Shown here: positions 3,343-25,810 of the stretch, one piece after another
Layout: every line of letters starts with the position of its first letter
How positions within the stretch are numbered: position 1 is the first letter of the stretch
Assembly (NCBI GenBank): GCA_022570975.1
Contig: JACZYS010000004.1
Location: forward strand, 1-28,832
DNA length: 28,832 bases
Reading direction: 5' to 3'
Source: Candidatus Zixiibacteriota bacterium
Lineage (GTDB): Bacteria > Zixibacteria > MSB-5A5 > GN15 > FEB-12
Made by a program: the position numbers and the translations under genes
The notes under the pieces: model-generated
Told to the model about the DNA's origin: nothing
The model's input: the letters and a program-made list of their open reading frames with translations, nothing else
Databases searched by the model: none

Positions 3343-3363
3343 ATGGCGGAGAGGCAGGGATTC
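3343..3363 (-). repeat. outer att core: 21-bp copy of the tRNA-Ser 3' end
   Basis: ATGGCGGAGAGGCAGGGATTC is identical to 3648-3668 and 23044-23064. Identity with the inner copy extends to 28 bp (3342-3369 vs 3647-3674). Confidence 0.95.
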
Positions 3364-3647: not shown

Positions 3648-3668
3648 ATGGCGGAGAGGCAGGGATTC
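3648..3668 (-). repeat. inner att core: 21-bp copy of the tRNA-Ser 3' end
   Basis: Exact match to 23044-23064 and 3343-3363. Confidence 0.95.
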
Positions 3669-6896: not shown

Positions 6897-8552
6897 CTAT
6901 TCCCAAGGGTTGAATTTGCCCATGTTGGGGCGGATGCCTTCGTCTGGGGTGTTTGGTGCCGAACCGCCTTTGAAAAAGTAATTTACCAAATATGTTAAAT
7001 CAGCAATATTACCATTACTGGAATCTGCATTGAAATCCAAAATATTACGCGGCCAATAAACATCATCACCACCTTTGAACATATATCTCACCATTGATGT
7101 CAGATCAGCGATATTGCCAGATAAGTCAGCATTAATATCTCCTGGCGTAAATCTCCCCACTTGATCATATGGCATTAGCTGTGCTCTTATACGGTGTTCA
7201 GGTGCAAAGTCTCTCCAAATAAACACCGCCTGACCAGCGTCGTTGATATCACAATCAAAATGGAGCCCATGAATACCTGCAATACCGGGGATATTATTGA
7301 TCCTCATATTATGGCCAACTAAATTTCCAGTTGGATCAACCTTTTGTGCAAATACATCCAATTTTTGAGATGCCCCGTTATCAGGGTGAAGTCGTGCATC
7401 TGACCAGAAAACCAATACATTACCCAGTGAATCACAGGCGAGAGTTGGATGGATAACTTGTTGCAATAAGAGCCATGTGGTATCGGCATCATTTACCCTG
7501 ACAGGGTCATACTTTGGTGTGCCATCTGCATTAAATCCTCGAACCCAGATATGGTTGCGAACCCAATAGAACGAGTTTAGCTGACTTTCGAACCAGACTA
7601 TATAGAAATCTCCATCCGGTTCCATCATCATATCTAGTCTATGAACATTCTCAGTTGCACAATTGGCCGTATCCATGTAGCCGGCCGAACAGTCGGCCAT
7701 CATGGCATCAGTTCGTGGAGTGCCGTCGGCGTTAAAAACTGCATAAAATACATGGGAATACGGTGAACCGTAGTCACTGGCATTCCAGGCTACGGCAAAG
7801 GAATTGTCATCGGCAAGTCCAATTGCTGGTTCACTGAAGATATCATATTTACCTTCATAATTAGGAACTCCCAGAAGGGGATGAGGTAGAAACATTGCAT
7901 TTATAACCGAAGACATGCTATCAATATCTTGATAATATAATCTTATAAGGACTGAATCTTTGGTTACCAGATTTTGATGGGGATATACTTCACAGACCAT
8001 TGCAATAACATTGTTATTATTTATTGCTCCGTAGGGACGGTTAGAAATATAAGGTAAATATTCTGGCTCGCATAGCATACATACTGGATCTTCAGCATGT
8101 GGCGCTCCATTCTCATCAAATAAATATGCGAAAATCCTAGAGAATAATTCCAGAGTGACAGTATCTTTTTCCGCTTTTGTTGATATCAACACTTTTCCAA
8201 TATCGTTGCAATAGATAGGTAGAGAAGCAACACTTTCCCAGATCGAATCAGAGATTGTATCCGGGAGAAAAACTGTTACCGGCTGGAGCTGGTTACCAAA
8301 TTTGTCAAATCTATTGAATTGCTGAAAACTAAATCCTTGACCTAACGTAACGTAATCAATTTCATATAGATTTCCTGCGGCATCAATGGCAACAGAAGGC
8401 CAAACTGATCTATCTGGGTAACCAAGGGTAGTATCATAGCACATAAAATCATCACGAGTTACAAGTGAATCTGCGTTGGCAACTTGAATATAACATATTA
8501 TCAATGACAATATTATTGAAAAAATTATCTGCTTGACTCTTGTTTTTCTCAT
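6897..8552 (-). CDS. secreted beta-propeller-like repeat protein with C-terminal dockerin-like domain
   Basis: Signal peptide; repeated PxxAxDxxGxFxxxW / F(D/N)xxG units; duplicated dockerin-like motif (GDINADLSGNIADLTSMVRYMFKGG...DFNADSSNGNIADLTYLVNYFFKGG). Confidence 0.75.
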   Translation of the reverse strand: MRKTRVKQIIFSIILSLIICYIQVANADSLVTRDDFMCYDTTLGYPDRSVWPSVAIDAAGNLYEIDYVTLGQGFSFQQFNRFDKFGNQLQPVTVFLPDTISDSIWESVASLPIYCNDIGKVLISTKAEKDTVTLELFSRIFAYLFDENGAPHAEDPVCMLCEPEYLPYISNRPYGAINNNNVIAMVCEVYPHQNLVTKDSVLIRLYYQDIDSMSSVINAMFLPHPLLGVPNYEGKYDIFSEPAIGLADDNSFAVAWNASDYGSPYSHVFYAVFNADGTPRTDAMMADCSAGYMDTANCATENVHRLDMMMEPDGDFYIVWFESQLNSFYWVRNHIWVRGFNADGTPKYDPVRVNDADTTWLLLQQVIHPTLACDSLGNVLVFWSDARLHPDNGASQKLDVFAQKVDPTGNLVGHNMRINNIPGIAGIHGLHFDCDINDAGQAVFIWRDFAPEHRIRAQLMPYDQVGRFTPGDINADLSGNIADLTSMVRYMFKGGDDVYWPRNILDFNADSSNGNIADLTYLVNYFFKGGSAPNTPDEGIRPNMGKFNPWE

Positions 8553-8639: not shown

Positions 8640-11453
8640 CTATTTTAACATCACCATTTTCTTGGAATCCTCAAATCCATCAGCTTTCAGGCGATAAAAA
8701 TAGACTCCGGAAGCCACTTGACTGCCAGATTCATTCTTTCCATCCCAAACAACTTCATGATTTCCGGCAGTTATCTGCCCATCATGGAGAGTTCTAACCA
8801 CCTGTCCCAAGATATTGATCACTGAGAGTTCAATCTCTGAGACCTTGGGAATTGAGAAGCTGATAGTGGTTGATGGGTTAAACGGATTTGGGTAGTTGTT
8901 ATGCAAAGAATAAGTTTCCGGAATCAACTCTTCTTTGTTAAGAGTTTTGTAGTAACCGCGGGATTTGAAAAAATATTTTATCTTCTTGCCCTTAATTACT
9001 GAATACTCAGGTATCTTAAACGATAACTGAATCTTTTCACCCGGCTGTATCGTTGCCATATTGCCATCTTCATACGATAATCCGGCAACAAGTTTACCGG
9101 CAACACTATGCACTGCTTCACTTGGTGTAATTCGGTGTTCAGTGAAATCTGTTCCCTGACCAACAAATAAGGCCTGGTAATCTGCCTTATATGATACTTT
9201 CCAGCTAATTTTGGCATTAAATGTTTCACCAAGCTCAATATCAGTTAAATCAGCATACCAGCGAGTGTTTTCGCTTTGGTATTCTCTTGAAGGTATTGAA
9301 CCAAGATAATACCAGTTTCCGTTAATGTCCTGAATCTCAGCAATAATGCTTTCACCCTCTCCACCGGTGTTTTCAAAAGTTATTGTTTTTTTCTGTGGTC
9401 CGCCTCCCGGACCAAGGGCAAAACCGTTCATGACAGTTTCAGAATACTCTCCAGATGCCGGATTTGGGAATGAGAGAATCATGTAGCCCGGCCAGTCAAC
9501 ATCCATCCAATACCCATCTTCTTTACCAATATACTCCATTAAATCTCTACCCCATGAATCAGTTGCAGAAAGTGGTGCAATTGCTTTAGTATAAGTGAAT
9601 ACCTTTCCTTCATTCGATATACCTACTTTTGTGTTTTCATCATATATCACCATCACCAATTCTACTTCGTCAAGAAATGTGATTTCATTTTCCAATTCTC
9701 TTATTTCAAAATGGAAATATCCATCATCTTCTATCAGCCTGTTTGAAAGAGGATAGAAGTCGTTTTTAATTTCAGGATTCAAATTACCCTGTGAATGAGT
9801 GAGGATTGTGTTTTCAAGCACATATCCGGACCCATACCAACTGTAAAGTGTTGGGCATCCTCCTCCTCCTCCTGCAACTCTAACAGTAAACTCACCTCTA
9901 ATAAGAGAAAGAGCACCATATCCGTTACCCATTGCGTCAAGCGAGTTAATTATTAGGGTATCGTTAGTATGTTTAATAACAACTCTGTTGAAAGCTTTGT
10001 GCATTGAGTCTGGCTCTACCTCTATAAATTTGTAGACATCAGTCCCAACTACGTCTGCATCTACGACTAGAAAGCCAACATTATCAAAAACTAAGTTACC
10101 GAGTGAAAACTCTGGCGTTATAGTTACTGATTCAAGTGAACTCGATTCAGCTGCTATTAAAGTATCAGTGGACTTAGATCTAGACCATCTTAGTGTCCCA
10201 CCTTCATAAGAAAATTCTGTTGAAATGCTTTTGGGATCGGTATGTGTTATAACGCTTGAATCAACAGCAAAGCCGGCGTTGATTTCACTAGTTACAACGT
10301 CTGTATATAACGGTGCATTGTTCTTCATAGAAAAGTAATAGCTGTAGTTCTCAGTAGCCACAACCACAACCACAGTATCAAGTTTCCACCAGGCGCGCTC
10401 TTCCACGGTTTTTAGGTAGCCATATGCACCTGCATTGTCATTAGTATCAGCATAATTGGTGCAACCTGTAAAGATGTAGTCATCTTTGATCCTTACTTTG
10501 TAATTTGCGTCGGGATCTGCAGTTACATCAACATCAAAGTCTATATGCAGGAAGTCCGCCGGAAAAGTGGTAGGTGCAGCTGGACCACCTGAGCTTAATG
10601 ATACGTCAATTGTTGTATCAGTAATGTTCGAAATAGTTGGAGTACCAGAATAATCAGTCGTCGTGAAACTATTGTAGTCCAGTTCAGAATCAAACGCCAC
10701 CGTAAATTCATAACTGTCCTCGTGCTTGAAGTTCAGACTATCCAGCACCAAAGTTGCGGTTGCAGTCCCACCTACATAAGTAGAATCCATAATCCCAGTG
10801 GTGGTCAGCTTTACTGCTGGTTCTTCGTAATACCTATATCCAGAGGTGAGAGTAGGATAATAATCTGTACTTCCTCCTGAAGTTGTATTGTAGCGATTTA
10901 TGAAAGCTCCGCTTGAATCTTTGAATTCCAAATGAACGCTATCTGTATAACCCAGACATTGAGTCAAATAGATATTTATAGTAAATATATCTATATTATC
11001 AAATTCATCTGGAGTTGATGGAATCATCTTGATTTTGAGATACTTCCCAGACGGATCACCGTAGATAATTGAATCAAGTGTTGAAGCAGTATCTGTATAT
11101 AACCAATCAATTTCATATTCTAATGCAGTGTGTCCTGTAGCATTGATTTTTAGATATATGAATAGTTCACTAACATCTGTATGAGCATCAGAATTGAAAG
11201 TGAATGTATGTGAAGATTGTTCAAGGAATTCACCTCCAAATTGAATTTCGTCGCTGGTCATAAGATATTCACATGAGCCACAGGCATCTAAAGCCATGCT
11301 CTGGTCATATCCTTTCTGCGCATTAACATTCACCGATGTAAGAACTAGTAAAAGAATTGACGTCAAAATAAGTCTTTTAAACATTTTTCCTCCCATGTTA
11401 AAATTGTCGTTTAGATTCTGTTTTTCAAAAAAATTAAAGAAAGAAATCTCCAT
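8640..11453 (-). CDS. large secreted beta-rich protein with cohesin-like modules, a GGCPxLYxW domain and a C-terminal FlgD-Ig/T9SS-like domain (alternative start 11384)
   Basis: Signal peptide MFKRLILTSILLLVLTSVNVNA begins at 11384; GGGGGCPTLYSWYGSGYVLENTIL motif; C-terminal LHNNYPNPFNPSTTISFSIP. The cohesin-like call is a by-eye fold guess. Confidence 0.7.
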   Translation of the reverse strand: MEISFFNFFEKQNLNDNFNMGGKMFKRLILTSILLLVLTSVNVNAQKGYDQSMALDACGSCEYLMTSDEIQFGGEFLEQSSHTFTFNSDAHTDVSELFIYLKINATGHTALEYEIDWLYTDTASTLDSIIYGDPSGKYLKIKMIPSTPDEFDNIDIFTINIYLTQCLGYTDSVHLEFKDSSGAFINRYNTTSGGSTDYYPTLTSGYRYYEEPAVKLTTTGIMDSTYVGGTATATLVLDSLNFKHEDSYEFTVAFDSELDYNSFTTTDYSGTPTISNITDTTIDVSLSSGGPAAPTTFPADFLHIDFDVDVTADPDANYKVRIKDDYIFTGCTNYADTNDNAGAYGYLKTVEERAWWKLDTVVVVVATENYSYYFSMKNNAPLYTDVVTSEINAGFAVDSSVITHTDPKSISTEFSYEGGTLRWSRSKSTDTLIAAESSSLESVTITPEFSLGNLVFDNVGFLVVDADVVGTDVYKFIEVEPDSMHKAFNRVVIKHTNDTLIINSLDAMGNGYGALSLIRGEFTVRVAGGGGGCPTLYSWYGSGYVLENTILTHSQGNLNPEIKNDFYPLSNRLIEDDGYFHFEIRELENEITFLDEVELVMVIYDENTKVGISNEGKVFTYTKAIAPLSATDSWGRDLMEYIGKEDGYWMDVDWPGYMILSFPNPASGEYSETVMNGFALGPGGGPQKKTITFENTGGEGESIIAEIQDINGNWYYLGSIPSREYQSENTRWYADLTDIELGETFNAKISWKVSYKADYQALFVGQGTDFTEHRITPSEAVHSVAGKLVAGLSYEDGNMATIQPGEKIQLSFKIPEYSVIKGKKIKYFFKSRGYYKTLNKEELIPETYSLHNNYPNPFNPSTTISFSIPKVSEIELSVINILGQVVRTLHDGQITAGNHEVVWDGKNESGSQVASGVYFYRLKADGFEDSKKMVMLK

Positions 11454-11539: not shown

Positions 11540-11574
11540 AATATATGAGCAGGGGTGACAGTTTCTGGCAGTGG
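11540..11574 (-). promoter_or_regulatory. operator-promoter for the secreted cluster: TGCCA-N5-TGTCA-N10-TATATT
   Basis: The minus strand reads CCACTGCCA GAAAC TGTCA CCCCTGCTCA TATATT, the same layout as at 17842-17875 and 17909-17941. Confidence 0.65.
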
Positions 11575-11673: not shown

Positions 11674-11696
11674 CCACTGCCAAATTCTGGCAGTGG
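11674..11696. promoter_or_regulatory. perfect palindromic operator CCACTGCCA-N5-TGGCAGTGG
   Basis: 9-bp perfect inverted repeat with a 5-bp spacer, 83 bp upstream of the 11780 start. No TATATT at +10 on either side. Confidence 0.7.
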
Positions 11697-11779: not shown

Positions 11780-14700
11780 ATGAAATCAAATTATTACAGT
11801 TTCGAAAAAATTATATCAAAAAATCTATTTTGTGAGTCTTGGTTAGCAGTTGACAAGGAATCAGGCGAGAATGTCTTCGTAAAGATTCCACTTTCAACAT
11901 CTGAAAGAGCCGATGTAAGAATAGAAGAAATTCTATACAATTCCTTTCAGAATCAGAAAGTTATTGGAAATGGAAGAATAGTAACTGCAAGGCGAAAAAC
12001 CAAAGAGAGCAAGAGACTTCAAATAGAATATCCATATCTGAGTGAAGAAATCTATATTCCATTGTCAAGCGAAAAATTTTGGAGTAATCTTGAAAGCATT
12101 TTACCTCAAATGGCAGTACTGCTTGATTACTTGCACTTGTACGGACTTGTTCACTGTGATATTAAGTTGAATAATTTCCTGGTTAAATCTACAGCAAATG
12201 GACCTCAATTGTATCTGAATGACTTAGATTTTTTAACAAAAGATAAATCAATTCCAAGGGGGATGATATTTGGAACAAGAGACCATATTCCTCCAGAAAT
12301 AGATTCAAATGAAATTGTATTATGTTCGTCAGATAATTACTCCATAGGAGCAATGTTAAAGAAATGCTTATCAGAGTTGAATAGAGAATTAGATAAATCC
12401 GTTCCCGAACAGACACAATTCTCGATAAATGAACTCGCAAATCTCTTATCGAATAAAGATCCATACAATAGACCAAGAATCCTCATGGATGCGTTGGTGG
12501 ATGCAAGTATTATCGATGAAGAGTCCAGATCAAATTATAATAGGGCAGTTATTGCAATGAAACTCTTGTCATCTTTTAAGTTTTTTCTTAGAAATGGTGA
12601 TAGCAATACTAATGAGTTAATGCAACATTTCTTTGATAAAAACAATATAATGGGAATTTCTGATGAACTAAAAAATGACTTTCAGTTATCATTGAATTCG
12701 AATAGATCTGCTACTATTAGAGTGTTCAAGAAGTTTTTCAAGATCGCATCTATTGCTAGGCATGGAGATTACTGGCATTTTGAATGCAAAGATTCTGATA
12801 TGTATTCTATCTTGGTTGAACTGGATAAAATCAAAAACACAAATGTCTTGCAGTTTCAGGATTCTTGCGACTTAAGAGAATTACAATATATCATCAAGAT
12901 AGTTGACAACTCAATTGTTGATGGAAACTACGAAAAGGCATACCATCTCAGTATCCATTTATTGGGAGCTTTTGAGAATCAAAATCTATCAAAGAGTGCT
13001 TCTCTTTATGAAAACATCCTAATCAAACTTGTGTCTCTTTCGAGAGATTTGAACAGAAATGGAGAGTTGAGAAAATTTCTACTCAAACTTTACACTTTGA
13101 GAAAGAGGCATGGAAATAGGGACATAAATTTATTATATGAATACAATACTCAGTTGTTATTGATTAGTTTTTTCATTAGAGCAAAGCGAATCATAAAAAT
13201 AGGAAAATTAATTTCAGAAAAACGTTCAGATCAAATTTCGCTAAGTAAATTCTTGGTGCAAGAGGCCTGGGTCAAGATTCACGAAGAGCATTACGAGGAA
13301 GCAAGGATTGTATTAAATAATTGTCAAACAATGGTTAATAGAATAGATGATAGAACACTTCTAATTGGAATTTATTATTCTTTAGGAATATTGGATTGGA
13401 GAAGAGGTAAGATAGAATCTTCAACTGATAATTTGTTGAGAGCATTTAATATAGCAGAAGAAGAAGACCATCTTTCAAAATCAGAATCAGTATCATTATT
13501 GACTGGGTTAATAATGCTATTAATAAATCAAATGGAAATAAATAAAGCAATAGAGATTGGAAAATCGGCAGTATTAGAAATCTCTGAAACCAGAGACAAG
13601 TCAAAGCTATCAAGAATTTATATACTTATGGCAACCGCATATAGTTTGATTCCCAATGAAGCAAAAGCGAGGTATTGGATTCAAAAAGCTTATCCTTACT
13701 TAAGAGTTAGATATAACAGACCACTTATAATCTATTACTATTTAATTCTTGGAATGATTGAAATAGATAGTTTCCATCTTAATAAAGCAAAGATTATCTT
13801 GTGCAATGCTTTAGAGCTTGCAGCTCCTAAAGAAAATGATGTTAATACTTGCGCAATTTACCAACAGCTTGCAAAAATTTCCTTTTACGAAGGGAAGAAA
13901 CTAGATTTTGAAAAATATTTACAACATGCAAGACAAATTAGCAAATCCATAAAAGATAAAGTTTCATATTTTGAAATTGAAAGTATGTCAGCATTATTTG
14001 ATTTTTATTACTCTCAAGAAGCTTGTCTAGAAAATGTTGAATTATCTTTTATTAAGCTTGTCAGCAATAGCGCTCATAATTATTCTTCAATTCTCCTCTT
14101 CCATATTTTACTAAACTCGACTTCCAAGAACGATAGAGAATTAATTGAAAAAATGTCAAACAAGAAAGTTACGATCTCTTTGAATTCAAATATTAGGCTG
14201 TTTAAGATGATAAGCTTAGTTCAGAAGTCAAATGAAAAGGATATTTCAAGAATTGACCTGAAGTTAAATTTCCTTAAGGAGGCTTACAAAGTATCGAATG
14301 AATCTGGAAATAGATTCAATTCTCTACTCCTTTCACAAAAAATCGCACAGTTGTATCTGAAAAAAGGGGAAACAAGACAAGCAAGAAAATACTTGGAAAA
14401 TGCAAAGAAGATTGCTGGGTTTATTGGGAATAGTTTTTTCTTAGACAAAATTGAGAAAAATATAGAGGAAATTAAATTGACAAATAGAGCAGTAGGACAG
14501 GAGCTTGAAGGATACAAACGTATTGGAAAAATTCTTGGTGATATTGATAATTATGACAAATCTATCAAAGAAGTCATAAAATTTGCAGTTTCTGCTACTG
14601 GAGCAGAAAGAGGTGTTTTGTTCCTAAAGAACATGCATGAAGATAAATTACGGATGGAAGCCTATGTAAATTGTGACGAAGAGAGCATTGAGGATATCAT

Positions 14701-15955
14701 CGATTTTAGCACCAACTTACCTAATAGCGTTCTAATAAATAATGAAACGCTTACAATTGAGGATGCTACAAAAGACAAAAGGACAAGGGATTACAAGAGT
14801 ATTATCCAGAACAATATTCTATCGGTACAATGTACTCCGATTTATTATGATGAGGGTCTATTGGGAGTGATATATTTGGATAACCACACAATTCCTGCAT
14901 TATTCGAAGAAAAAGATTTGGAGTATATCAAATCAATGTCAAATATTATTGCTATAATGATTATGGTTTTACGGGGACAAAAGGACCTTAAATATATAAA
15001 CAAGCAACTTTCGGAAGACTACAACAAAGCTAAAGGATCTATTGGATTCATATCAGAAAATAAGATTGTATTAGACATGTTCAAAATGATTTCAAAATTT
15101 GCTAAAACAAACGTTCCAATCTTAATAATTGGAGAAAGTGGCACTGGGAAAGAAATTATTTCCAACATGATACATGAACTTAGCGATAGAAAAGGTAAAC
15201 CATTCTTGAAACTTAACTGTGCAGCATTGCCAGCAAACCTTATTGAAAGTGAACTCTTTGGAGTTGCTAAGAAAGTAGCTACAGGTGTTGATGCAAGGGA
15301 GGGGAAATTTAAAGCAGCAGACGGAGGCACCCTCTTATTAGATGAGATAGGTGACATGCCTATGGAAATTCAGGCCAAAGTGTTAAGAGTTTTAGAATAT
15401 CAAGAATTTCAACCTGTTGGAAGTAATATTACTGTATACACCGATGTCAGATTTATTTATGCAACCAACAAAGATTTGAAAGAATTAATTAGGTTAGGGA
15501 AATTTCGAGAAGATTTGTATAGTAGAATACACTCAATAGATATTAAGATCCCTCCTTTAAGAGAGCGAGTTGATGACATCTTATTGCTACTTGATAAATA
15601 CATAAAATTTTACTCAAATATTAAACCTGCTCCTAGATTCTCCAATGATGCGATAGAATGTTTAATGAACTATCATTGGCCAAGTAATGTGAGAGAACTA
15701 AAAAACTTCGTTGAAAGATGTTGTATATTATATCCTGGAGATGAAATAAGTAAAGGGATGCTTCCTGAGGAATTTCAATCTCAAGAAATTAATGATAGAG
15801 ATTTGAACAAAAAAATAATTTCAAGTGAAATATCGAAATATAGGCTGGCATTAAATAGATTTGCTGGAAATGAATCTAAGTCGGCGAAATATTTGAACAT
15901 ACCGCTATCAACTTTTAGAAGAAGACTTAAAAAATATAATTTAGATAAAAAGTAA
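11780..15955 (+). CDS. Ser/Thr kinase-like / TPR / GAF / sigma54 AAA+ / Fis-HTH fusion enhancer-binding protein
   Basis: N-terminal kinase motifs (VFVK, HCDIKLNN, GTRDHIPPE, SDNYSIG); helical TPR-like middle; GAF (GAERGVLFL, GVIYLDN); AAA+ motifs GESGTGKE, NCAA, ESELFG, GGTLLLDEIG, RFIYATN, FREDLY, WPSNVRELKN; C-terminal HTH. Confidence 0.9.
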   Translation: MKSNYYSFEKIISKNLFCESWLAVDKESGENVFVKIPLSTSERADVRIEEILYNSFQNQKVIGNGRIVTARRKTKESKRLQIEYPYLSEEIYIPLSSEKFWSNLESILPQMAVLLDYLHLYGLVHCDIKLNNFLVKSTANGPQLYLNDLDFLTKDKSIPRGMIFGTRDHIPPEIDSNEIVLCSSDNYSIGAMLKKCLSELNRELDKSVPEQTQFSINELANLLSNKDPYNRPRILMDALVDASIIDEESRSNYNRAVIAMKLLSSFKFFLRNGDSNTNELMQHFFDKNNIMGISDELKNDFQLSLNSNRSATIRVFKKFFKIASIARHGDYWHFECKDSDMYSILVELDKIKNTNVLQFQDSCDLRELQYIIKIVDNSIVDGNYEKAYHLSIHLLGAFENQNLSKSASLYENILIKLVSLSRDLNRNGELRKFLLKLYTLRKRHGNRDINLLYEYNTQLLLISFFIRAKRIIKIGKLISEKRSDQISLSKFLVQEAWVKIHEEHYEEARIVLNNCQTMVNRIDDRTLLIGIYYSLGILDWRRGKIESSTDNLLRAFNIAEEEDHLSKSESVSLLTGLIMLLINQMEINKAIEIGKSAVLEISETRDKSKLSRIYILMATAYSLIPNEAKARYWIQKAYPYLRVRYNRPLIIYYYLILGMIEIDSFHLNKAKIILCNALELAAPKENDVNTCAIYQQLAKISFYEGKKLDFEKYLQHARQISKSIKDKVSYFEIESMSALFDFYYSQEACLENVELSFIKLVSNSAHNYSSILLFHILLNSTSKNDRELIEKMSNKKVTISLNSNIRLFKMISLVQKSNEKDISRIDLKLNFLKEAYKVSNESGNRFNSLLLSQKIAQLYLKKGETRQARKYLENAKKIAGFIGNSFFLDKIEKNIEEIKLTNRAVGQELEGYKRIGKILGDIDNYDKSIKEVIKFAVSATGAERGVLFLKNMHEDKLRMEAYVNCDEESIEDIIDFSTNLPNSVLINNETLTIEDATKDKRTRDYKSIIQNNILSVQCTPIYYDEGLLGVIYLDNHTIPALFEEKDLEYIKSMSNIIAIMIMVLRGQKDLKYINKQLSEDYNKAKGSIGFISENKIVLDMFKMISKFAKTNVPILIIGESGTGKEIISNMIHELSDRKGKPFLKLNCAALPANLIESELFGVAKKVATGVDAREGKFKAADGGTLLLDEIGDMPMEIQAKVLRVLEYQEFQPVGSNITVYTDVRFIYATNKDLKELIRLGKFREDLYSRIHSIDIKIPPLRERVDDILLLLDKYIKFYSNIKPAPRFSNDAIECLMNYHWPSNVRELKNFVERCCILYPGDEISKGMLPEEFQSQEINDRDLNKKIISSEISKYRLALNRFAGNESKSAKYLNIPLSTFRRRLKKYNLDKK

Positions 15956-16028
15956 CAGCCCTCAAATTTTACCACATCATTATTTTCTTGCCAAAGTTGG
16001 TTAAGCTAAGTCATTAGCTATCAACAAT

Positions 16029-16049
16029 AGAATTCATTCTTTGAATTCT
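16029..16049. promoter_or_regulatory. candidate upstream activator sequence (AGAATTCA-N5-TGAATTCT)
   Basis: 8-bp inverted repeat about 105-125 bp upstream of the -24 element. AT-rich, so a chance match is possible. Confidence 0.3.
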
Positions 16050-16152
16050 TCGGTTAAATAATTGGCAAATCTTAATTAACGACAAAGAGCCAAAAGTCTC
16101 TATGTCTTTGTACCCAATTCACTTATCAACATATTCCTGCGCTTAAAAATCT

Positions 16153-16168
16153 CGGCACCTTTTTTGAA
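16153..16168 (+). promoter_or_regulatory. sigma54-type -24/-12 promoter (CGGCAC-N5-TTGAA)
   Basis: GG at 16154-55 and G at 16166 have the canonical spacing, with A in place of C at -12. The site follows a sigma54 activator gene and precedes an AGGAGG RBS at 16208-16213. Confidence 0.65.
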
Positions 16169-16218
16169 TAGCCTCTTAAAGTCAACTAGAGGATCAACAT
16201 TTATTCAAGGAGGTAGCC

Positions 16219-16467
16219 GTGATGAGAAGGATGCTAATCTTATCAGTATCATTTTGCATTGTGCTCTCACTGATAGTTGGATCAGTTCTTGTTCCAACTG
16301 ATTTACATGCGGGACAGGGTGGTGGACTTCCCCCTCCGCCAGATACAACCGGAACTGACAGTTATATAGGTGGTGGGGATGCTGAAAAAATACAATTTGA
16401 AGAACCAACAAGTGAAGAACTTTCACTTACCGACTTGCTTCTTTTGTATTTCGATTTAATTCTTTAA
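16219..16467 (+). CDS. small exported peptide/protein (82 aa)
   Basis: Strong RBS; signal-peptide-like N-terminus ending ...TDLHA; Gly/Pro-rich acidic middle; Leu-rich C-terminal tail; followed by a terminator. Confidence 0.8.
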   Translation: MMRRMLILSVSFCIVLSLIVGSVLVPTDLHAGQGGGLPPPPDTTGTDSYIGGGDAEKIQFEEPTSEELSLTDLLLLYFDLIL

Positions 16468-16472
16468 ACATT

Positions 16473-16499
16473 GGGGGCAATTAAACTGCCCCCTTTTTT
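16473..16499 (+). terminator. intrinsic terminator after the peptide gene
   Basis: GGGGGCA-ATTAAAC-TGCCCCC followed by TTTTTT. Confidence 0.75.
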
Positions 16500-16511
16500 A
16501 TTGAGGTCATT

Positions 16512-17132
16512 ATGAATCCTTCTGAAAAAATATTATTGCTAATTAACTTGCTTAATTCAAAATCTGATGTAAGCCTACATGAAATAATGGAGAAATGTAA
16601 AATTGCTAAAAGAACTGCCTATAGATATCTTAACTCACTTTCGGAGTATAACATTCCTGTTTACTTTGATAAGGATGTCCTGGGCTACCGACTGACAAGG
16701 AAATCATCAATTCACAATTCTAGTTTGTCTGAAAAAGACTATCTACTTGCCATAATCTGCTTAAAAATGGTAGAATGTAATGTGAGCATAGACTATAGAA
16801 ATTCAATCAAGAATGTTATACTAAAACTTTTAATTAATAATACATTGAATATTGAACATGCATTAGAATTGATTGAACAAGAATTTGATCCTGCAAATCT
16901 AAAGACACATGACTTTTCTGAACTTATGTCTTCAGTCTTGATTGTGTCGGCTATTTCTTCTAAGAGAAAAATTCGTTTATACAAGTATACATCAGAAGAC
17001 AAGAATGTTACGGATATAATTCTCAGCCCAACATTGAACTTTGAAAATCAATGGAGGGTAAGCGAAAATAAAGCAAATCATGAATTTTCTGTACAACTTA
17101 AAGATATCAAGAAGGTAGAAGTTCTGCCATAA
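16512..17132 (+). CDS. YafY-like winged-HTH regulator with degenerate WYL-like C-terminal domain
   Basis: N-terminal HTH (LLNSKSDVSLHEIMEKCKIAKRTAYRYLNSL...GYRL). The C-terminal AISSKRKIRLYKY...LSPTLNFENQWRV...KDIKKVEVL follows the WYL-domain pattern. No WCX domain. Confidence 0.65.
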   Translation: MNPSEKILLLINLLNSKSDVSLHEIMEKCKIAKRTAYRYLNSLSEYNIPVYFDKDVLGYRLTRKSSIHNSSLSEKDYLLAIICLKMVECNVSIDYRNSIKNVILKLLINNTLNIEHALELIEQEFDPANLKTHDFSELMSSVLIVSAISSKRKIRLYKYTSEDKNVTDIILSPTLNFENQWRVSENKANHEFSVQLKDIKKVEVLP

Positions 17133-17908: not shown

Positions 17909-17941
17909 ACTGCCATATTCTGGCAGTGAGTTGTTTATATT
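17909..17941 (+). promoter_or_regulatory. rightward operator-promoter TGCCA-N5-TGGCA-N10-TATATT for the TerY-P-like operon
   Basis: ACTGCCA TATTC TGGCA GTGAGTTGTT TATATT, ending 43 bp before the 17985 ORF. Confidence 0.7.
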
Positions 17942-17984: not shown

Positions 17985-19109
17985 TTGGTTTACAAACCCC
18001 GCAAGCATGGTTTTTGGTCCCATATATTTAGTTTGGTATTTGTGTTTGGGTTCTTTCTCAGTGCTCTAACAACAGTCATTTACCACTCGGTATTTAAAGA
18101 ATCAAGACGTGTGAGTATATCTGCTAATGCCGTTCAATTGAATTCAGAGTTTCAATTAATTCAAGGACGCATTCTCTTTCAAGCAGAACCTGTTTATAAC
18201 GTAACCGTTATAGTAGATTTGGTTGACTCCCTAAGTCACAAAAGCCCCCTTAGTAGTACAGTAACAAACAAATCGGGAGAATTTCTACTTGATTCGATAC
18301 CAACCACGATCGGAAATAGAAAAGTTACAGAAATCGAGATAAATGCTAAGGGCAATTTGGTTGTTAAGGGAGACTCAATTACTGTTTCAGGAACGGAAAC
18401 AATCACTATAAGTGGTAAAGGTTCACAAGAGATTGTTAAAATTTCTATTTGGGTAATTGTAATTCTTCCGGCAATATTTCTATTAAGTTTCATCGTCCCG
18501 TTTCTTACCTTATCACCGCGCTGGAAGTATGGGTTCTCGATTAGTTTAGCAATTATATTGACTCTATCAATGATTATCGCAATATCAGGAGGTATAAGTA
18601 ATATCAATAAGAATTACTCATCTGATACTGAGAAAGTGATTTCTCTTGGATACGCATCATTATTTCATGGAACTTACGTTGAAGGAGTTCCATCAGAATG
18701 GCTGTTTTCAATAACCTCCCTACAATTAGATACAAAATCAGATAATTCGGGGAATGTTACAGTAAAAGGGTTCGGAGTGCCACTTTGGGTCCTGTTAATT
18801 GCCGTAGTTGGCGCTGGACTATTAACTGTATCTATAATAGTATCTGAAATAAAGGATCGCCCAAAATTCCATCTGATTGAAAAAAATGTACCTGATGATG
18901 AGGAATTTAAAGAATTTAGGGCTAGACTAGAACGAATCGTTCGACATCAATTCTACATTCTCTTTTCCCCTATAGGTGCAATCTTTGTTTATCAGATGCT
19001 AGTTACTGCCGATGCGGCATACAACTCTACTACAGTAGCGTTAGCGGCATTCGGAGCAGGAGCATCTTTAAATGTAATACTGGACTACGCAATAACATCT
19101 TACCGATGA
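17985..19109 (+). CDS. membrane protein (about six TM segments) with an extracytoplasmic Ig/carboxypeptidase-regulatory-like domain
   Basis: Hydrophobic segments flank IQGRILFQAEPVYNVTV...TVTNKSGEFLLDSIP. TTG start with no clear RBS. The stop overlaps the next ATG (ATGA). Confidence 0.6.
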   Translation: MVYKPRKHGFWSHIFSLVFVFGFFLSALTTVIYHSVFKESRRVSISANAVQLNSEFQLIQGRILFQAEPVYNVTVIVDLVDSLSHKSPLSSTVTNKSGEFLLDSIPTTIGNRKVTEIEINAKGNLVVKGDSITVSGTETITISGKGSQEIVKISIWVIVILPAIFLLSFIVPFLTLSPRWKYGFSISLAIILTLSMIIAISGGISNINKNYSSDTEKVISLGYASLFHGTYVEGVPSEWLFSITSLQLDTKSDNSGNVTVKGFGVPLWVLLIAVVGAGLLTVSIIVSEIKDRPKFHLIEKNVPDDEEFKEFRARLERIVRHQFYILFSPIGAIFVYQMLVTADAAYNSTTVALAAFGAGASLNVILDYAITSYR

Positions 19110-19486
19110 AGATTGATAGCTCTACAAACATCACTGCCGGTTTAAAGAAAGGTCTGGAACTATTAACTTCTTTAGATAATGATAAGGAAGCCATTCATTA
19201 TCTCCGTCCAGTTGTTTTACTATTTACAGACGGTGGACATAACACTGGATGCTTTCCCTATAAGACAGCAGATAAAATCAAAGAGATTGCTGATTTGGTA
19301 ACCGTGGCATTCGGTCAAGATGCTGACACAAAGCTTCTCAAGAAATTGGCTTCAACTGAACAGCATTTCTACAGATGTGACAGCGGTAAAGATCTTAGAC
19401 AATTCATGGCTTCTGTCGGGAAAACCATGACAATGACTTATGCCGACAACCAGAACACCACTGATCAATTAACTCAATTACAATAA
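19106..19486 (+). pseudogene. terY: TerY-like vWA domain, C-terminal half only
   Basis: TNITAGL and RPVVLLFTDGG (MIDAS Thr and Asp elements) and VAFGQDADTKLLKKLAS are present. The N-terminal DxSxS motif is missing, and none appears in about 45 in-frame codons read upstream. Confidence 0.6.
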
Positions 19487-19498
19487 AGGATAATTGCT

Positions 19499-20428
19499 AT
19501 GTTATATTCAAATAATCAAGAACAGCTTATTTATAGATATCAGCCCGCACCTATTCGTTGCTCGGAAGATTTGCTTAGTGAATTGATAGAATTCTCACAA
19601 ATCTCGACTGATATCGTTCATGAACCATTTCGAGATGAATCGAATTGGAATATGGGTTTATCTACAACAACAGGTAATGTAAGAGATGACAATCAAGATT
19701 ATGGTTTATGTTTTAACATTGGAAAATATCAAGTCATGATTGTTGCTGATGGAATGGGTGGCCCGCCTTATGGAAAGAGGGCATCTTATAGTGTTGTAAA
19801 AGCCAGTGCATTTTCAATCATGAAAGATCTTGGGAAACGATATAAAATCTTCAAACCAGTATTGAGGGATGTTGTAAAGCAAGCTGTTAGAACTGCTTCA
19901 ATGGCTTTATCAGCAAAAGCAGATAAGGTAGATAGCTACAAAAAAGGCTTAAGAACAACTCTTATTGTCATAATCGCTGATAAACATGAATATGTTTATG
20001 GATATATTGGAGACGGCAGCATAATTCTATTTCAAGGTAATTCATTTATTCACTTACTTAATCCCCATAAAGCAAATATGTATATTCCTAACCTATTGAC
20101 AGCATCTTTAGGTCCCACAATACATGGTGAAATGGTACTCGGTTCACATGAGAGAAAACCAAATGATTTCTTAATTACCGGAACAGATGGGATATTTGAT
20201 AGACTTGAAGCAAATCCTGAAGATTTCCCTCAAGGAACTAACAATTTCTTATCTCTTCTTATGAACAGTGTACTTGAGTCAGACGGTAATCTAAAGGAAT
20301 TATCAAAACAGACAATAAATGAACTTGCAGATTTTCAAGACGAACAAGGTTATATTTGTAATGACAATCTCACCCTTGGTTTACTTGGAAACTATAAAAA
20401 GCCAGAAGTAACTTGTCAAAAAGTATAG
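19499..20428 (+). CDS. PP2C/PPM-family protein phosphatase (TerY-P triad component)
   Basis: GNVRDDNQD, VADGMGG, TTL, IGDGS, TASLG, TDGIFD and DNLT motifs. Confidence 0.88.
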   Translation: MLYSNNQEQLIYRYQPAPIRCSEDLLSELIEFSQISTDIVHEPFRDESNWNMGLSTTTGNVRDDNQDYGLCFNIGKYQVMIVADGMGGPPYGKRASYSVVKASAFSIMKDLGKRYKIFKPVLRDVVKQAVRTASMALSAKADKVDSYKKGLRTTLIVIIADKHEYVYGYIGDGSIILFQGNSFIHLLNPHKANMYIPNLLTASLGPTIHGEMVLGSHERKPNDFLITGTDGIFDRLEANPEDFPQGTNNFLSLLMNSVLESDGNLKELSKQTINELADFQDEQGYICNDNLTLGLLGNYKKPEVTCQKV

Positions 20429-20436
20429 GTGGAGTG

Positions 20437-21663
20437 ATGTCAATACTTCATTCAAAAATTAAAACAAAGTCTGGCAATAAGCTTCTAATCGAAAGAGAAT
20501 TATCTTTCGGCGGTCAAGGAAGAGTCTATCTTGCACATAAAATAAAAACCAGTAAAGCTGTTGTTGTAAAGATATTCAATAATAAATTCAATAGGAAAAT
20601 TCTTCTTGAAAGAATTGAGTTTCTAATTTCAATTCAGGAAAAGAATTCATTTGAGGGGATTGAATTACCTTTTGATCTGATAGAAACTAAAGATTTGATA
20701 GGTCATTGTACTGCCTATATCGATTCAATCTCTTTGGAAGACTATTTAATGAATTCAACAAGTTCGATTACAGAGAGATTGGAAACTGCCTTGTCAATAG
20801 CCAAGCAATTTAAACATCTTCATGGGTTAGGCATTGCTCATGGAGACATCAGAGCCCAGAATTTTCTTATTCAAACAGAAAAAAGGAATTTGAATGTTCA
20901 TTGCATTGATATAGATAATTTTAATCATGCCTCTGCTCCTGAACCGAATATGGTAGGTGAAGCTCTTTACTTGTCACCTGAGCAAAGGGATAAGCTCAGT
21001 AATGATACGTATTATCCTCCAACGATTGAAACTGATCTTTATCAACTTGGTATTTTGTTTCATGAAATAGTGCTACTTCTTCATCCTGCTCATGGCAATG
21101 ACAATACTCAAGAAGAGCTTGAAAACGCTATGAGTGGTGTATGGAAACTCGATCCAACAGTTTCAAAGGAAACAAAGAACATCTCAATATCCATTCTCAA
21201 TAATCAATTATGTAATCTCTTCAGGTTGGCACTGGTCCAATGTCCCAAAAAACGAACAACAACTGATAATTGGATTAAAGCATTTCAAAATGCAATAGAG
21301 AGAATATATCATTGTCCAAAATGTAACACACCTACAATTGTTGATAGTTCAAAGATATTTTGTCCTCAAGGCCATCTGTTTGAACTACTCAGTTTAGCAA
21401 ATGCAAAAACTAACAAGAAATTGTGTCTAAATGGTAAGTCATTTTTTATTGGCAGGGCTCAGTTTAATGATGATATCAGAATTAGCAACAAGCAATTGCT
21501 CATAAGCAGAATCGGTCCTGAACTTTGGGTTGAACATATTGGAACTAATCCGACTAAGTACAAGCAAAATGGAGTATGGCTTGATTTACCAAAGTACAAA
21601 AAGATTAAACTATGCAAGAATGATTTTATAAAAATAATGAAACATGAGTTAAAAATAATTTGA
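20437..21663 (+). CDS. Ser/Thr protein kinase with Zn-ribbon and FHA-like C-terminus (TerY-P triad component)
   Basis: GGQGRVY, VVVK, HGDIRAQN, IDIDN, YLSPE and TDLYQLG motifs; CPKC...CPQGH; FFIGR...ISNKQ...GTNPT. ATG 20437 has AGGTGGAG upstream and is preferred over TTG 20413. Confidence 0.88.
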   Translation: MSILHSKIKTKSGNKLLIERELSFGGQGRVYLAHKIKTSKAVVVKIFNNKFNRKILLERIEFLISIQEKNSFEGIELPFDLIETKDLIGHCTAYIDSISLEDYLMNSTSSITERLETALSIAKQFKHLHGLGIAHGDIRAQNFLIQTEKRNLNVHCIDIDNFNHASAPEPNMVGEALYLSPEQRDKLSNDTYYPPTIETDLYQLGILFHEIVLLLHPAHGNDNTQEELENAMSGVWKLDPTVSKETKNISISILNNQLCNLFRLALVQCPKKRTTTDNWIKAFQNAIERIYHCPKCNTPTIVDSSKIFCPQGHLFELLSLANAKTNKKLCLNGKSFFIGRAQFNDDIRISNKQLLISRIGPELWVEHIGTNPTKYKQNGVWLDLPKYKKIKLCKNDFIKIMKHELKII

Positions 21664-21877: not shown

Positions 21878-22936
21878 TCAGAACTCTAACTTCTCAACTG
21901 CATCTGCAAGATGATCAGGTGCCAAATGAGCGTAAATCATCGTTGTTTGAATATCAGAATGTCCCATTAGATTCTTTACCGTTGGTAAATCAACGCCTTT
22001 CATTACCAAGTGGGATGCAAAGGTATGACGAAGAGAATGGATCTTTGTAACATCAGAAAATCCGCACCTCTTCGTAATTGTCATAAATCTCTCACGAAGT
22101 TTTAACTTTAATTTTTCACCATTCTTACCTGGGAATACAAACATCGAACCATTTGATTTTGATTTCAATTCTTTAAGTAAATCTCTAATCTCTTCATTCA
22201 TTGGAATTGTTCGCTCACCGGTTTTGGGGTTCCAAAATTCTTTAGAAACTATATGTATTTTCTTTTGCTTAAGATCTATATCATTCCAAGTCAGATGGAT
22301 TAACTCTCCCAATCTCATGCCAGTATTCAAAAAAGTAAAGAAGATTGGATACAAATACTCTCCACAGTTTTGTAAAAGTAAATCCACTTCTTCTTCGGTT
22401 AGGAAACGAGGTTTCTTGGCATCAGTTACTTTTAATTTTTGGACACTCTTAGTAGGGTTTTCTTTCAGGTAATTACACTTTATAGCATAGTTAAATATGG
22501 TTCCGAGAGAAACTAATTCCATATTTACCGTATTAGTTTTGGCAAACTCTCTGTGGTTGAGTGGAGTTGTGCGCCGAAAAATCTTAAAATCTTCAAAGAG
22601 TTCAGAATGTAAATCAGACAGATCAACGATATCTTTCTTACCTTCTAAAAAGAATAGGAAATTATCAACAATAGCCCTATATCTTTTGAATGTAGATGGA
22701 GCATGATTTACTGATGAGTATTTGTTAAATATTTTGAGAAATTCTCTAATAGTTATTTGATTTGGTTCAAATTTATATTCCCCTTTTGAAATTTTCACTT
22801 CAATATCTTTTAGCTGAAGGAGCGCCACTTTTTTTGATTTACCAACTTTCTTACGATACCTTTTTCCCTTAAAAGTGTAGTCAAGAAACCAAGTTGATTT
22901 CCCGTTTTTTGTTCTATAACTATAAATTCTGGCCAT
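21878..22936 (-). CDS. int: tyrosine recombinase / site-specific integrase (352 aa from ATG 22936)
   Basis: Arm-binding-like N-terminus (MARIYSY...WFLDYTFKGKRYRK), TGMRLGEL, HSLRHTFAS, LMGH and TMIYAH. The ORF-track extension to 23014 overlaps the arm repeats and is probably non-coding. Confidence 0.93.
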   Translation of the reverse strand: MARIYSYRTKNGKSTWFLDYTFKGKRYRKKVGKSKKVALLQLKDIEVKISKGEYKFEPNQITIREFLKIFNKYSSVNHAPSTFKRYRAIVDNFLFFLEGKKDIVDLSDLHSELFEDFKIFRRTTPLNHREFAKTNTVNMELVSLGTIFNYAIKCNYLKENPTKSVQKLKVTDAKKPRFLTEEEVDLLLQNCGEYLYPIFFTFLNTGMRLGELIHLTWNDIDLKQKKIHIVSKEFWNPKTGERTIPMNEEIRDLLKELKSKSNGSMFVFPGKNGEKLKLKLRERFMTITKRCGFSDVTKIHSLRHTFASHLVMKGVDLPTVKNLMGHSDIQTTMIYAHLAPDHLADAVEKLEF

Positions 22937-22950
22937 ATAAAAATTCCTTA

Positions 22951-22972
22951 CTTGGCAGATATTAGGCAGAAA
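22951..22972. repeat. imperfect tandem 11-mers, putative arm-type sites at the tRNA-side att
   Basis: CTTGGCAGATA TTAGGCAGAAA resembles 3491-3512 and lies between the int start and the core. Confidence 0.55.
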
Positions 22973-23044
22973 CACTTTCAATGAGAATATAGAGAAATGG
23001 TAAGTTATTGTCAACTAGTTAGATGGAATATGTGATGTTATTTA

Positions 23045-23133
23045 TGGCGGAGAGGCAGGGATTCGAACCCTGGATAGGGGTTACCTATACACGCTTTCCA
23101 GGCGTGCGCCTTCAACCACTCGGCCACCTCTCC
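23045..23133 (-). tRNA. tRNA-Ser (GGA), 89 nt, CCA encoded
   Basis: Acceptor stem GGAGAGG/CCTCTCC; anticodon arm CACGC-CTGGAAA-GCGTG; long variable arm; T arm CAGGG-TTCGAAT-CCCTG; 3' GCCA. Confidence 0.97.
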
Positions 23134-24744: not shown

Positions 24745-24757
24745 TGGCTATTTCCTT

Positions 24758-25174
24758 TTAGGAACTACTTTCTGCAAGTGCGTTTCTGACCGAAAGGATT
24801 CTCCAGTATACTTTCTCAATAATCATAACTATTTCCTGTGACTTAAACGGCTTGCAGATGTATTCATCTGCTCCCAAAAGCAATGAATCTTTTATCGAGT
24901 AGATATCGCCATATGAAGTCATGATTATTACACCTATTGTAGGATGAACCTCCCTGATCTGTTTCAACAGTTCAAACCCACTCAGATTGGGCATATTCAT
25001 ATCCGATAATACAATATCAACGCTGTTGGTTTTTAAGATTTCAAGCGCTTCTGATCCGTCGCGGGCTGAAGAAACATGATAACCTTCTTTATTGAGTATT
25101 CTTTTAAGTAGGTCTCTGATTGCTTCATCATCATCTACTACTAAGATTGTTTTTTGCCTGTCAAGATTTTCCAT
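24758..25174 (-). CDS. single-domain response regulator (receiver)
   Basis: ILVVDDD, SDMNMP (phospho-Asp), IMTSYG, YICKPF. Confidence 0.9.
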   Translation of the reverse strand: MENLDRQKTILVVDDDEAIRDLLKRILNKEGYHVSSARDGSEALEILKTNSVDIVLSDMNMPNLSGFELLKQIREVHPTIGVIIMTSYGDIYSIKDSLLLGADEYICKPFKSQEIVMIIEKVYWRILSVRNALAESSS

Positions 25175-25198
25175 CTCAATTATTCTTACCCTCTTTTA

Positions 25199-25615
25199 TC
25201 AATCACAAAGAACAGAGCTTATTTCAGTCAAAAGCCCAATTAAGTCTACCGGTTTATAAATTACCTTGTTCGCTCCCATGAATCCGGCCTCATTGACCAG
25301 TTTTTCTGTTGCGTTGCCGGTTATAATAAAAACAGGTACACCGGGGAGTTTTTCTTTCATCTTTGGAATTAAGTCAAGCCCCGAGACCTCCGGCATAATT
25401 ATGTCAACTGTAATAAGGTCAAAATGATCTGTATTGATTTTTTCCAGTGCCTGGGTTCCGTCTGAAGCAACTTCTATCTTAAGAGCCTGAGATATTTCAC
25501 ACATCTCTTTAAAAGCTTGCTGAACAGGAAGTTCATCATCTATTATAAGCAGCTTGAACGGCTTACCCCTGCGCTGGGCGGTGATGTTTAATTTCTCAAG
25601 AACTTCTACAGGCAT
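25199..25615 (-). CDS. single-domain response regulator (receiver)
   Basis: LLIIDDE, VDIIMPEVSG, IITGNA, VIYKPV. Confidence 0.88.
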   Translation of the reverse strand: MPVEVLEKLNITAQRRGKPFKLLIIDDELPVQQAFKEMCEISQALKIEVASDGTQALEKINTDHFDLITVDIIMPEVSGLDLIPKMKEKLPGVPVFIITGNATEKLVNEAGFMGANKVIYKPVDLIGLLTEISSVLCD

Positions 25616-25810
25616 CTGACACCTTTTTGTTTTTTATCTATGTTGTTCAGAAACAAATATTACTCGCTTATCTATCGTACACGACAATAGGTGCCAGTAC
25701 TTTTGGGTTCAATATCTGAACATATTCCTATTAGTTATATCGTCAGAATACGGGATGAGTTTATGCTGATTTGTTATTGTATTATAACGGAATGTCAGCA
25801 TATGACAATT

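Follow-up and report, generated by a model that had tools for sequence, protein, structure and literature searches.

Which task is carried out by a giant cytoplasmic activator that is followed by a gene for a small exported peptide and by a gene for a winged helix-turn-helix (wHTH) regulator, and do the three genes belong together? This question was raised by positions 11780-17132 of contig JACZYS010000004.1 from a Candidatus Zixiibacteriota bacterium (sample: marine sediment), of which a stretch of 28,832 nt (the window) was analyzed. The three genes, referred to as the cassette, and the activator, a bacterial enhancer-binding protein (bEBP) by its domains, are as follows.

11780-15955, plus strand: bEBP open reading frame (ORF), 1391 amino acids, annotated with Pfam and NCBIfam
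16222-16467, plus strand: pre-peptide ORF, 81 amino acids, with an alternative GTG start at 16219
16512-17132, plus strand: short WYL-type regulator, 206 amino acids, with a wHTH, a helical linker, and a beta-barrel, and without WCX

Comparative analysis argues that these genes are a real, conserved, and previously undescribed cassette made of known kinds of parts. We consider it reasonably probable that this is a sigma54 cassette subordinate to a LexA-independent damage regulon, which was captured here by a tRNA-Ser island.

Conservation of the three-gene cassette

To survey homologues, the kinase-TPR-GAF part of the bEBP was searched against 285 genomes from this phylum in all six frames, and collinear full-length matches were obtained in about 70 of them, from several families, with 21-32% identity. 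Forty homologous loci were compared together with their flanks, each encoding a full-length bEBP homologue (25-36% identity). A peptide ORF of the same build followed the bEBP stop codon in 36 of the 40 loci, starting 225-278 nt past this stop in 34 of the 36, and a gene for a wHTH protein of ~204 amino acids was called directly after the peptide ORF, also in 34 of the 36. The flanks were unrelated between genomes: type IX secretion system (T9SS) cargo, carB, and glgB-like genes were among the neighbors, and one chromosomal context elsewhere had the cassette between glgB-like and carB genes. Among the neighbors scanned, an S8 peptidase was found near the cassette at one other locus only, and there was no conserved neighbor. 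Since the same order was maintained within unrelated flanks, the three genes form a unit that is normally not island-borne, and the S8 protease of the window lies outside it. Our literature searches turned up no paper that describes this architecture or deals with sigma54 in Zixibacteria.

The original prediction for this DNA had proposed a compact ordered unit, with a sigma54-type promoter before the peptide gene and a WYL-like third gene, and had made its case depend on whether peptide and wHTH genes also follow homologous bEBPs. Every feature that it had placed was found at its position, and the unit, the promoter (with upstream activator sites and IHF-like sites), and the WYL-like character of the third protein were borne out by the comparisons given here. 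The step in which an S8 protease processes the peptide was not, because this protease is not a conserved neighbor. By its sequence conservation, the cassette is a self-contained, phylum-wide regulatory unit.

Enhancer and promoter of the peptide gene

The following elements were located between the bEBP and peptide genes.

15968-15974 (TTTACCA) and 15988-15993 (TTGCCA), plus strand: distal activator half-sites, right behind the bEBP stop
16018-16030, plus strand: IHF-like site 1, located 134 nt 5' of the -24 motif and weak, its TTR part having 2 mismatches
16063-16068, minus strand: proximal activator half-site, inverted TGGCAA, of the enriched reverse type
16124-16136, plus strand: IHF-like site 2, TATCAACATATTC, 1 mismatch
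16153-16168, plus strand: sigma54-type -24/-12 promoter CGGCAC-N5-TTGAA, CGGCACCTTTTTTGAA, compared with a matrix over 37 loci
16207-16213, plus strand: strong Shine-Dalgarno sequence AAGGAGG; a Shine-Dalgarno core stands before the peptide ORF in 36/37 loci

When the intergenic regions of 37 loci were compared, the motif T(T/C)(G/A)CC(A/G) was found as a direct repeat, in two or three copies, right behind the bEBP stop, with inverted copies ~100 nt further on. The forward half-site (T[TC][GA]CC[AG]) occurred 49 times in the first 50 nt past the stop (5.8 expected), an 8-fold enrichment at a fixed place, and reverse half-sites occurred 17 times at +100 to +150 (6.2 expected). Sites matching WATCAA-N4-TTR with one mismatch at most, counted relative to the -24 motif, accumulated at -140 to -121 (about -135; 17 versus about 1 expected) and at -60 to -21 (22 versus about 2), corresponding to a 10- to 16-fold enrichment of IHF-like sites at two fixed positions; two HU/IHF-family genes are present in the genome.

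The promoter consensus was (T/C)GGCA(C/T)-N5-TTG(A/T). In the matrix, GG was found in 37/37 loci, C and A in 34 each, and TTG in 34-37/37, while the usual C of the -12 element was limited to four promoters and missing in 33/37. GG-N10-TG lay within the 36-nt window from -80 to -45 relative to the peptide start in 30 of the 37 loci, compared with about 1% expected per window. With rpoN also present in the genome, a cognate -24/-12 promoter, upstream sites, and a sigma54 gene, by which the target of a bEBP is recognized, were all found, with the reservation that the -12 element reads TTG(A/T) and not TTGC. By phylogenetic footprinting, the region is a textbook sigma54 enhancer layout, and the cis-architecture of the cassette is strongly supported at this level.

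Half-site variants (TTTGGC, ATTAYCC, and ATGTGCC) coincided with altered HTH_8 helices of the bEBP, and the wHTH recognition helix of the third gene was constant despite these variants, which would assign the repeats to the bEBP; this co-variation is confounded by shared ancestry of the loci.

A C-rich element, often CCTCC, was observed 5-9 nt 3' of the -12 TTG in all 37 loci, before the expected transcription start, and probably belongs to the melted region. A structure in the 5' untranslated region, or an anti-Shine-Dalgarno function, of the peptide mRNA was considered and dropped: the mean z of -0.3 was not significant, and CCTCC is upstream of the expected start.

Domain structure of the sensor-activator

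The bEBP consists of a kinase, a small alpha/beta domain with a long TPR superhelix, a GAF domain, an AAA+ domain, and a Fis-type HTH, in this order. Pfam matches were Pkinase at 22-201 (2.8e-10), TPR_12 and TPR_MalT, GAF at 929-1060, and Sigma54_activat (PF00158) at 1091-1255 (9e-58), followed by AAA_lid_14 and HTH_8. The Walker-type motifs GESGTGKE and DE of the AAA+ domain were invariant in the aligned homologues. In the kinase, K35, D127, N132, and D150 (the catalytic Lys, Asp, and Asn, and the Asp of DFG) were invariant in 32/32 aligned members. Residues 236-925 were modelled by AlphaFold 2 (AF2) with a predicted local distance difference test (pLDDT) score of 86, as the small alpha/beta domain and about 13 TPR-like repeats. 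Judged by domains and promoter footprint, the activator is a sigma54 enhancer-binding protein. Autoactivation of the bEBP gene from its own sigma54 promoter was considered as well and rejected, such a promoter being found upstream in 3/41 loci only, which is the chance level.

A palindrome common to the cassette and recA

A 19-bp palindrome was found upstream of the bEBP gene and, further on in the window, upstream of the operon at 17985-21663.

11555-11573, no strand: degenerate copy, 2 mismatches to CTGCCA-N5-TGGCAG
11676-11694, no strand: exact palindrome ACTGCCA-N5-TGGCAGT, 86 nt 5' of the bEBP start codon
17856-17874, no strand: exact copy upstream of the operon
17909-17927, no strand: exact copy, about 60-100 nt 5' of the first gene of the operon

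Beyond the window, the 2.3-Mb assembly has no further copy of the exact CTGCCA form. Using the general form ACTGNCA-N5-TGNCAGT, the palindrome was detected upstream of the bEBP in 23/41 loci with two mismatches at most (nine of them exact), versus 4/246 control windows, mostly at about -150 to -167 from a protein landmark. The five genomes scanned contained 2-5 exact copies each, one of which was always at the cassette. Outside the window, this genome has one copy of the general form, 137 nt upstream of recA, and the palindrome recurred ~135 nt upstream of recA in 24/30 genomes of the family (one mismatch at most). Other sites were upstream of a comM-like gene, upstream of a short WYL paralogue, and next to hsp20/dnaJ; 10 of 16 short WYL paralogues outside cassettes carried it. 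The operators that the original prediction had assigned to the third protein, as controls of the rest of the island, do flank the unit; they are not an island regulon, given the sites at recA and at the bEBP genes of other loci.

Association with recA and a comM-like gene, which are typical SOS genes, together with outer bases (CTG...CAG) like those of classical SOS boxes and the occurrence of LexA in 36/41 genomes of the family, may suggest a variant LexA box, through which the bEBP, recA, and the island operon would be LexA-repressed, with WYL proteins uninvolved. However, the spacing of the palindrome is CTG-N11-CAG, not N10, and the palindrome was missing upstream of lexA in all 17 cases; these regions have a different box, CTG-N10-CAG, between the TTGACA -35 and the -10 elements. 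Furthermore, the recA palindrome lies upstream of conserved promoter elements rather than over them, a position of the activator type, and lexA was not found in this genome (86% complete). A LexA box is, therefore, an unlikely explanation of the palindrome.

In the recA upstream regions (e.g. G000:C71:7344-7362), cTATTTT occurs ~9 nt past the palindrome and is followed, ~20 nt on, by AAATGTGATATATT, which is extended -10-like. ATATCACATT recurs upstream of lexA in the opposite orientation as well. The probable LexA box, CTG(C/A)(C/A)CA-NN-TG(G/A)GCAG, is found about 40-80 nt before the lexA starts in most of 21 upstream regions.

On the other hand, candidate binders of the palindrome are available among WYL proteins. 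A WYL-family match was obtained in 106/108 genomes of the family, the secondary matches listed being mostly frames of ~320 amino acids, and the 20 WYL proteins sampled were a conserved protein of ~318 amino acids starting with MGMAKYDRLLYILNLLRSRRNLNA (e.g. G000:C161:1345-1950). DriD activates recA and other damage genes from the palindrome ATACGAC-N7-GTCGTAT (PMC10853764), and single-stranded DNA is a ligand of DriD and PafBC (PMC9186387, PMC11804915). By analogy with the DriD precedent, it can be proposed that the palindrome probably belongs to a damage or stress regulon that does not depend on LexA, with WYL proteins as the candidate regulators and the bEBP gene as a putative member. In several genomes, a short WYL paralogue (210-230 amino acids) was seen within a few kb of the long gene, an arrangement reminiscent of PafB/PafC.

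The exported peptide

The pre-peptide of the window has a K/R n-region, a hydrophobic core, and a cleavage-type site (LHA|GQ), as in a Sec-type signal peptide. The same plan was maintained in 34 aligned members: a K/R-rich start leading into a hydrophobic core, an AxA-type site, behind which DG usually stands, a mature head of the form GGG..PP..P (GGG..PPPP..DTTG here), often with DTTG, an acidic Ser/Thr-rich linker, and an amphipathic, hydrophobic tail of 12-14 residues (14 in the window peptide). Neither the PEP motif nor the basic cluster of PEP-CTERM proteins was present in the 34 aligned tails.

A profile search found one copy of the peptide in the genome and 182 representative clusters among 1.84 billion proteins; 150 clusters listed measured 63-137 amino acids, nearly all of them 69-95. 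Close pairs were under purifying selection, with more synonymous change than would be expected of non-coding DNA (e.g. 23 synonymous versus 19 non-synonymous codon differences). The single copy, the Shine-Dalgarno sequence, purifying selection, and the profile matches indicate that the peptide ORF is a real gene.

What is the peptide for? In the original prediction, it was proposed to be exported, processed, and re-imported as a signal that binds to the TPR region, giving a sigma54-based quorum or feedback loop of the RRNPP type. Several features are in keeping with this: each TPR-bearing activator is strictly accompanied by a single cognate peptide gene, the peptide evolves fast and keeps its build, its short, hydrophobic tail, which in most cases begins close to an acidic residue, is reminiscent of SHP pheromones in Rgg systems, and the TPR region is a long groove-forming superhelix. 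However, the structural neighbors of this superhelix were scaffold TPRs, the best bacterial ones being the anti-sigma factor DdvA and MalT domain III, and RRNPP receptors were missing from the 50 best structural matches; nor did the bEBP have a Pfam match to RNPP_C. Co-folding of residues 236-925 with the mature peptide scored 0.01, which is no verdict either way and lends no support to binding. Within the peptide, conservation was highest at the N-terminal head of the mature part rather than in the tail. Among the neighbors scanned, neither a protease nor an importer was conserved near the cassette, re-import of a peptide across two membranes has no known precedent, and the kinase and GAF domains offer alternative inputs. 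Peptide signalling through the TPR region is thus quite improbable, and we infer that the peptide is an exported output, namely, a membrane-active or surface-associated small protein, rather than an input signal.

The short WYL-type regulator and the island

The peptide and regulator genes are separated by the following element.

16473-16493, plus strand: hairpin, rich in GC and followed by a T-run

When 35 loci were inspected by eye, most had a GC-rich stem of differing sequence at the corresponding position, the stem being kept as a structure, whereas a T-run behind it was present in three of the 35 only, so that the T-run of the window is unusual. The terminator that had been proposed between the peptide and wHTH genes is a hairpin with a T-run at this locus; at the majority of loci, these two genes have the appearance of a single operon split by a hairpin, not of two units. 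Since the stem is common and the T-run is rare, the hairpin may be read as an intra-operon attenuator or 3' stabilizer that would allow for much peptide and less regulator. At one locus (G105:C16), the peptide gene was present as two tandem, slightly diverged copies before the wHTH gene, each with its own hairpin.

The regulator of the window matched HTH_11 (2.2e-7), as did 29 of 30 members (PF08279), while none of the 30 matched the Pfam WYL family (PF13280). Its AF2 model (pLDDT 88) comprised the wHTH, helical linker, and beta-barrel. The top Foldseek matches in the PDB were DriD, BrxR, CapW, and PafBC (E 3e-6, probability 1.0, over the full length), and all 22 matches at E <= 0.001 were WYL regulators. 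DriD residues 3-218 aligned at Z 9.0; re-ranking with VIA-align mainly reflected the wHTH domain and contributed little. WYL was annotated in 28-51% of the members of the nearest Atlas clusters. The WCX extension is absent, as the protein ends after the barrel at residue 206, compared with 266-330 residues in the matched chains. The third protein is thus WYL-like by its modelled fold.

In the window, the whole cassette is contained in a ~19.4-kb integrated element.

3343-3363, 3648-3668, and 23044-23064: 21-bp direct repeats of the tRNA-Ser(GGA) 3' end, the first two being 305 bp apart
17985-21663, plus strand: operon for a 374-residue protein (weak DUF6795), a 126-residue partial vWA, a PP2C, and a Ser/Thr kinase
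21878-23014, minus strand: tyrosine integrase, adjoining the tRNA
23045-23133, minus strand: tRNA-Ser(GGA)

With two exact palindromes before the vWA-PP2C-kinase operon, the island seems to have plugged its own operon into a host operator. This setting between att repeats next to an integrase, the two operators, and the presence of BrxR and CapW among the best structural matches of the short WYL protein may instead suggest that the cassette is mainly a regulator of a mobile element or of defence, in which the WYL protein controls the vWA-PP2C-kinase operon, and the bEBP and peptide are accessory. However, the cassette lies in ordinary chromosomal contexts in other genomes, where no vWA, PP2C, or integrase was found near it, is present in at least 70 of the 285 genomes and several families of the phylum, and has its operator in common with recA; a mainly island-bound role is, therefore, very unlikely.

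The vWA-PP2C-kinase set resembles a TerY-P-like triad, and a membrane protein heads the operon. The left part of the island contains three large genes on the minus strand (3908-6862, 6897-8552, and 8640-11453), which are divergent from the bEBP gene and are separated from it by a common 326-bp intergenic region that holds the operator; among their products, an S8 subtilase and a 937-residue protein end in FlgD-Ig/T9SS sorting domains, and a 551-residue protein had no Pfam match. Outside the island, 23311-28832 (minus strand) encodes FapA, two single-domain response regulators, a PilZ protein, and other small proteins, and looks like a motility/chemotaxis-type neighborhood of the host chromosome.

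The L1 loop and a model for the cassette

The L1 loop of the window bEBP reads KVATGV instead of GAFTGA. The loop phenylalanine was absent from 40/40 homologues, which had a loop of the ELFG(V/I)xxxxAT type, mostly NVATGV, whereas four other bEBPs of the same genome read GAFTGA; the Thr-Gly core is retained. This phenylalanine is regarded as essential in PspF-type and other model activators. The role of the L1 loop in sigma54 activators has been described (PMC3467059). GVATGV/RTATGV loops were also observed in four proteins of 509-518 residues (GAF-AAA+-HTH) from Acidobacteria and Myxococcota, found by a locus search with an L1-loop alignment that otherwise returned mostly generic bEBPs of other phyla; the variant is thus wider than the cassette, the phylum, and the kinase-TPR architecture. 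Given the loops and the promoters described above, it seems that co-evolution has linked a clade of bEBPs with a phenylalanine-less L1 loop to promoters without the -12 cytosine.

From the same two absences (the loop phenylalanine in the window protein and 40/40 homologues, and the -12 C in 33/37 promoters), one might propose that the activator acts without sigma54, on a sigma70-type holoenzyme, as do the GAFTGA-less relatives Rhodobacter NtrC and TyrR, with the GG-N10-TG motif being something else, but this is extremely unlikely in view of the GG and TTG, which show no variation in their precise sigma54 spacing and stand at a constant distance from the peptide start, the classical sigma54 layout of distal sites and IHF-like sites in an enhancer of about 200 bp, the Thr-Gly core, the strong AAA+ match, and rpoN.

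Under the sigma54 reading, the cassette may work as follows. The palindrome would be the putative site of a WYL-family activator of a damage or stress regulon, similar to DriD, with the near-universal 318-residue WYL protein and the short WYL proteins as candidate binders; were it under WYL damage control, damage would license production of the bEBP. In the bEBP, the AAA+ engine stands behind three candidate inputs: the Hanks-type kinase, the MalT-like TPR superhelix, and the GAF domain. The bEBP would bind the repeats behind its own gene through the Fis-type HTH, as suggested by half-sites that change where the HTH_8 helix changes, oligomerize, and open the sigma54 promoter despite its phenylalanine-less loop, to which promoters without the -12 C may be matched. 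The transcript would yield much peptide and, by read-through of the hairpin, less of the WYL regulator, which could feed back on the same operator. In the window, the two further operator copies would put the vWA-PP2C-kinase operon under the same control.

Several observations weigh against this model, in addition to the shared ancestry noted for the half-sites. No palindrome with two mismatches or fewer was detected in 18 of the 41 cassette loci, and none (0/20) upstream of the sampled genes for the ~318-residue WYL protein. The Gly-rich loop of the kinase is degenerate. The GAFTGA loop by which bEBPs are recognized is missing from the window protein and all 40 homologues, and because the loop has no phenylalanine, it is the promoter footprint that has to carry sigma54 dependence. 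None of the sequence was found in the metatranscriptome runs of the source study.

An extension of the model, a damage-licensed alarm peptide, would have WYL proteins read DNA damage at the recA-type operator, the bEBP flood the periplasm or surroundings with a lineage-specific peptide, and the TPR region read the peptide back. If true, the peptide would be read in the producer or its kin, and this would be the first case of peptide signalling through a sigma54-based loop in a diderm phylum; we regard it as decidedly improbable.

For an uncultured sediment phylum, the cassette provides a defined and testable circuit, every cis element of which (operator, activator sites, bending sites, promoter, and attenuator hairpin) is readable from comparative sequence. 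It also offers a natural experiment on sigma54 activation, since 41/41 activators lack the loop phenylalanine and 33/37 promoters lack the -12 C, and this pairing bears on how the L1 loop reads the fork junction at -12. Furthermore, the palindrome suggests that, in a lineage other than Actinobacteria and Caulobacter, a recA operator belongs to a regulon that is independent of LexA and of which WYL proteins are the likely regulators, and the cassette points to a truncated, WCX-less WYL form that would be made on demand. About 180 sequence clusters of small exported peptides are defined, each tied to its own multi-sensor activator.

Comparison with known systems

The combination of a cytoplasmic TPR regulator and an adjacent gene for a small exported peptide is found in RRNPP systems (PlcR/PapR, Rgg/SHP, NprR, and Rap). 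In those systems, however, an HTH or phosphatase is fused to the TPR, whereas the output domain of the cassette is a sigma54 AAA+ engine. Moreover, the peptide has about 50 residues after signal cleavage, the host is a diderm, and there was no structural or sequence match to the receptors. In the WYL regulators DriD, PafBC, BrxR, and CapW, the fold (wHTH, helical linker, and WYL barrel) corresponds to that of the third protein, and the DriD palindrome is of a similar size. In contrast, the cassette protein has ~205 residues, no WCX dimerization domain, and no Pfam WYL match, and is a putative binder of DNA and a ligand that is encoded behind a peptide gene and a sigma54-type promoter.

Among activators, NifA-type bEBPs have GAF, Sigma54_activat, and HTH_8 in the same order, and NifA gave the best NCBIfam score, for the C-terminal 480 residues (316 bits, residues 908-1328), although this was far below the 529-bit cut-off. 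The cassette bEBP differs in 900 extra N-terminal residues (kinase and TPR) and in KVATGV instead of GAFTGA. In the ZraSR-ZraP and PspF-PspA units, a bEBP controls a neighboring sigma54 promoter, from which a small protein directed to the envelope is expressed. The cassette peptide has no sequence relation to ZraP or PspA, and its activator is a cytoplasmic multi-sensor, not a response regulator or a PspA-controlled protein.

The closest functional analogue is the PEP-CTERM system PrsK/PrsR/PrsT (Haft et al. 2006, PMC1569441), in which a kinase, a TPR protein, and a sigma54 bEBP are tied to single small genes. Its target genes also lie behind long intergenic regions with an activator motif and a -24/-12 promoter, and their products are likewise exported, Ser/Thr-rich, and provided with a hydrophobic tail. 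The cassette peptide differs in having neither the PEP motif nor the basic C-terminal cluster. Whereas these functions are distributed in PrsK/PrsR/PrsT, the cassette fuses them in one cytoplasmic protein, with a Hanks-type instead of a histidine kinase, and joins this protein to one adjacent target gene and a WYL regulator.

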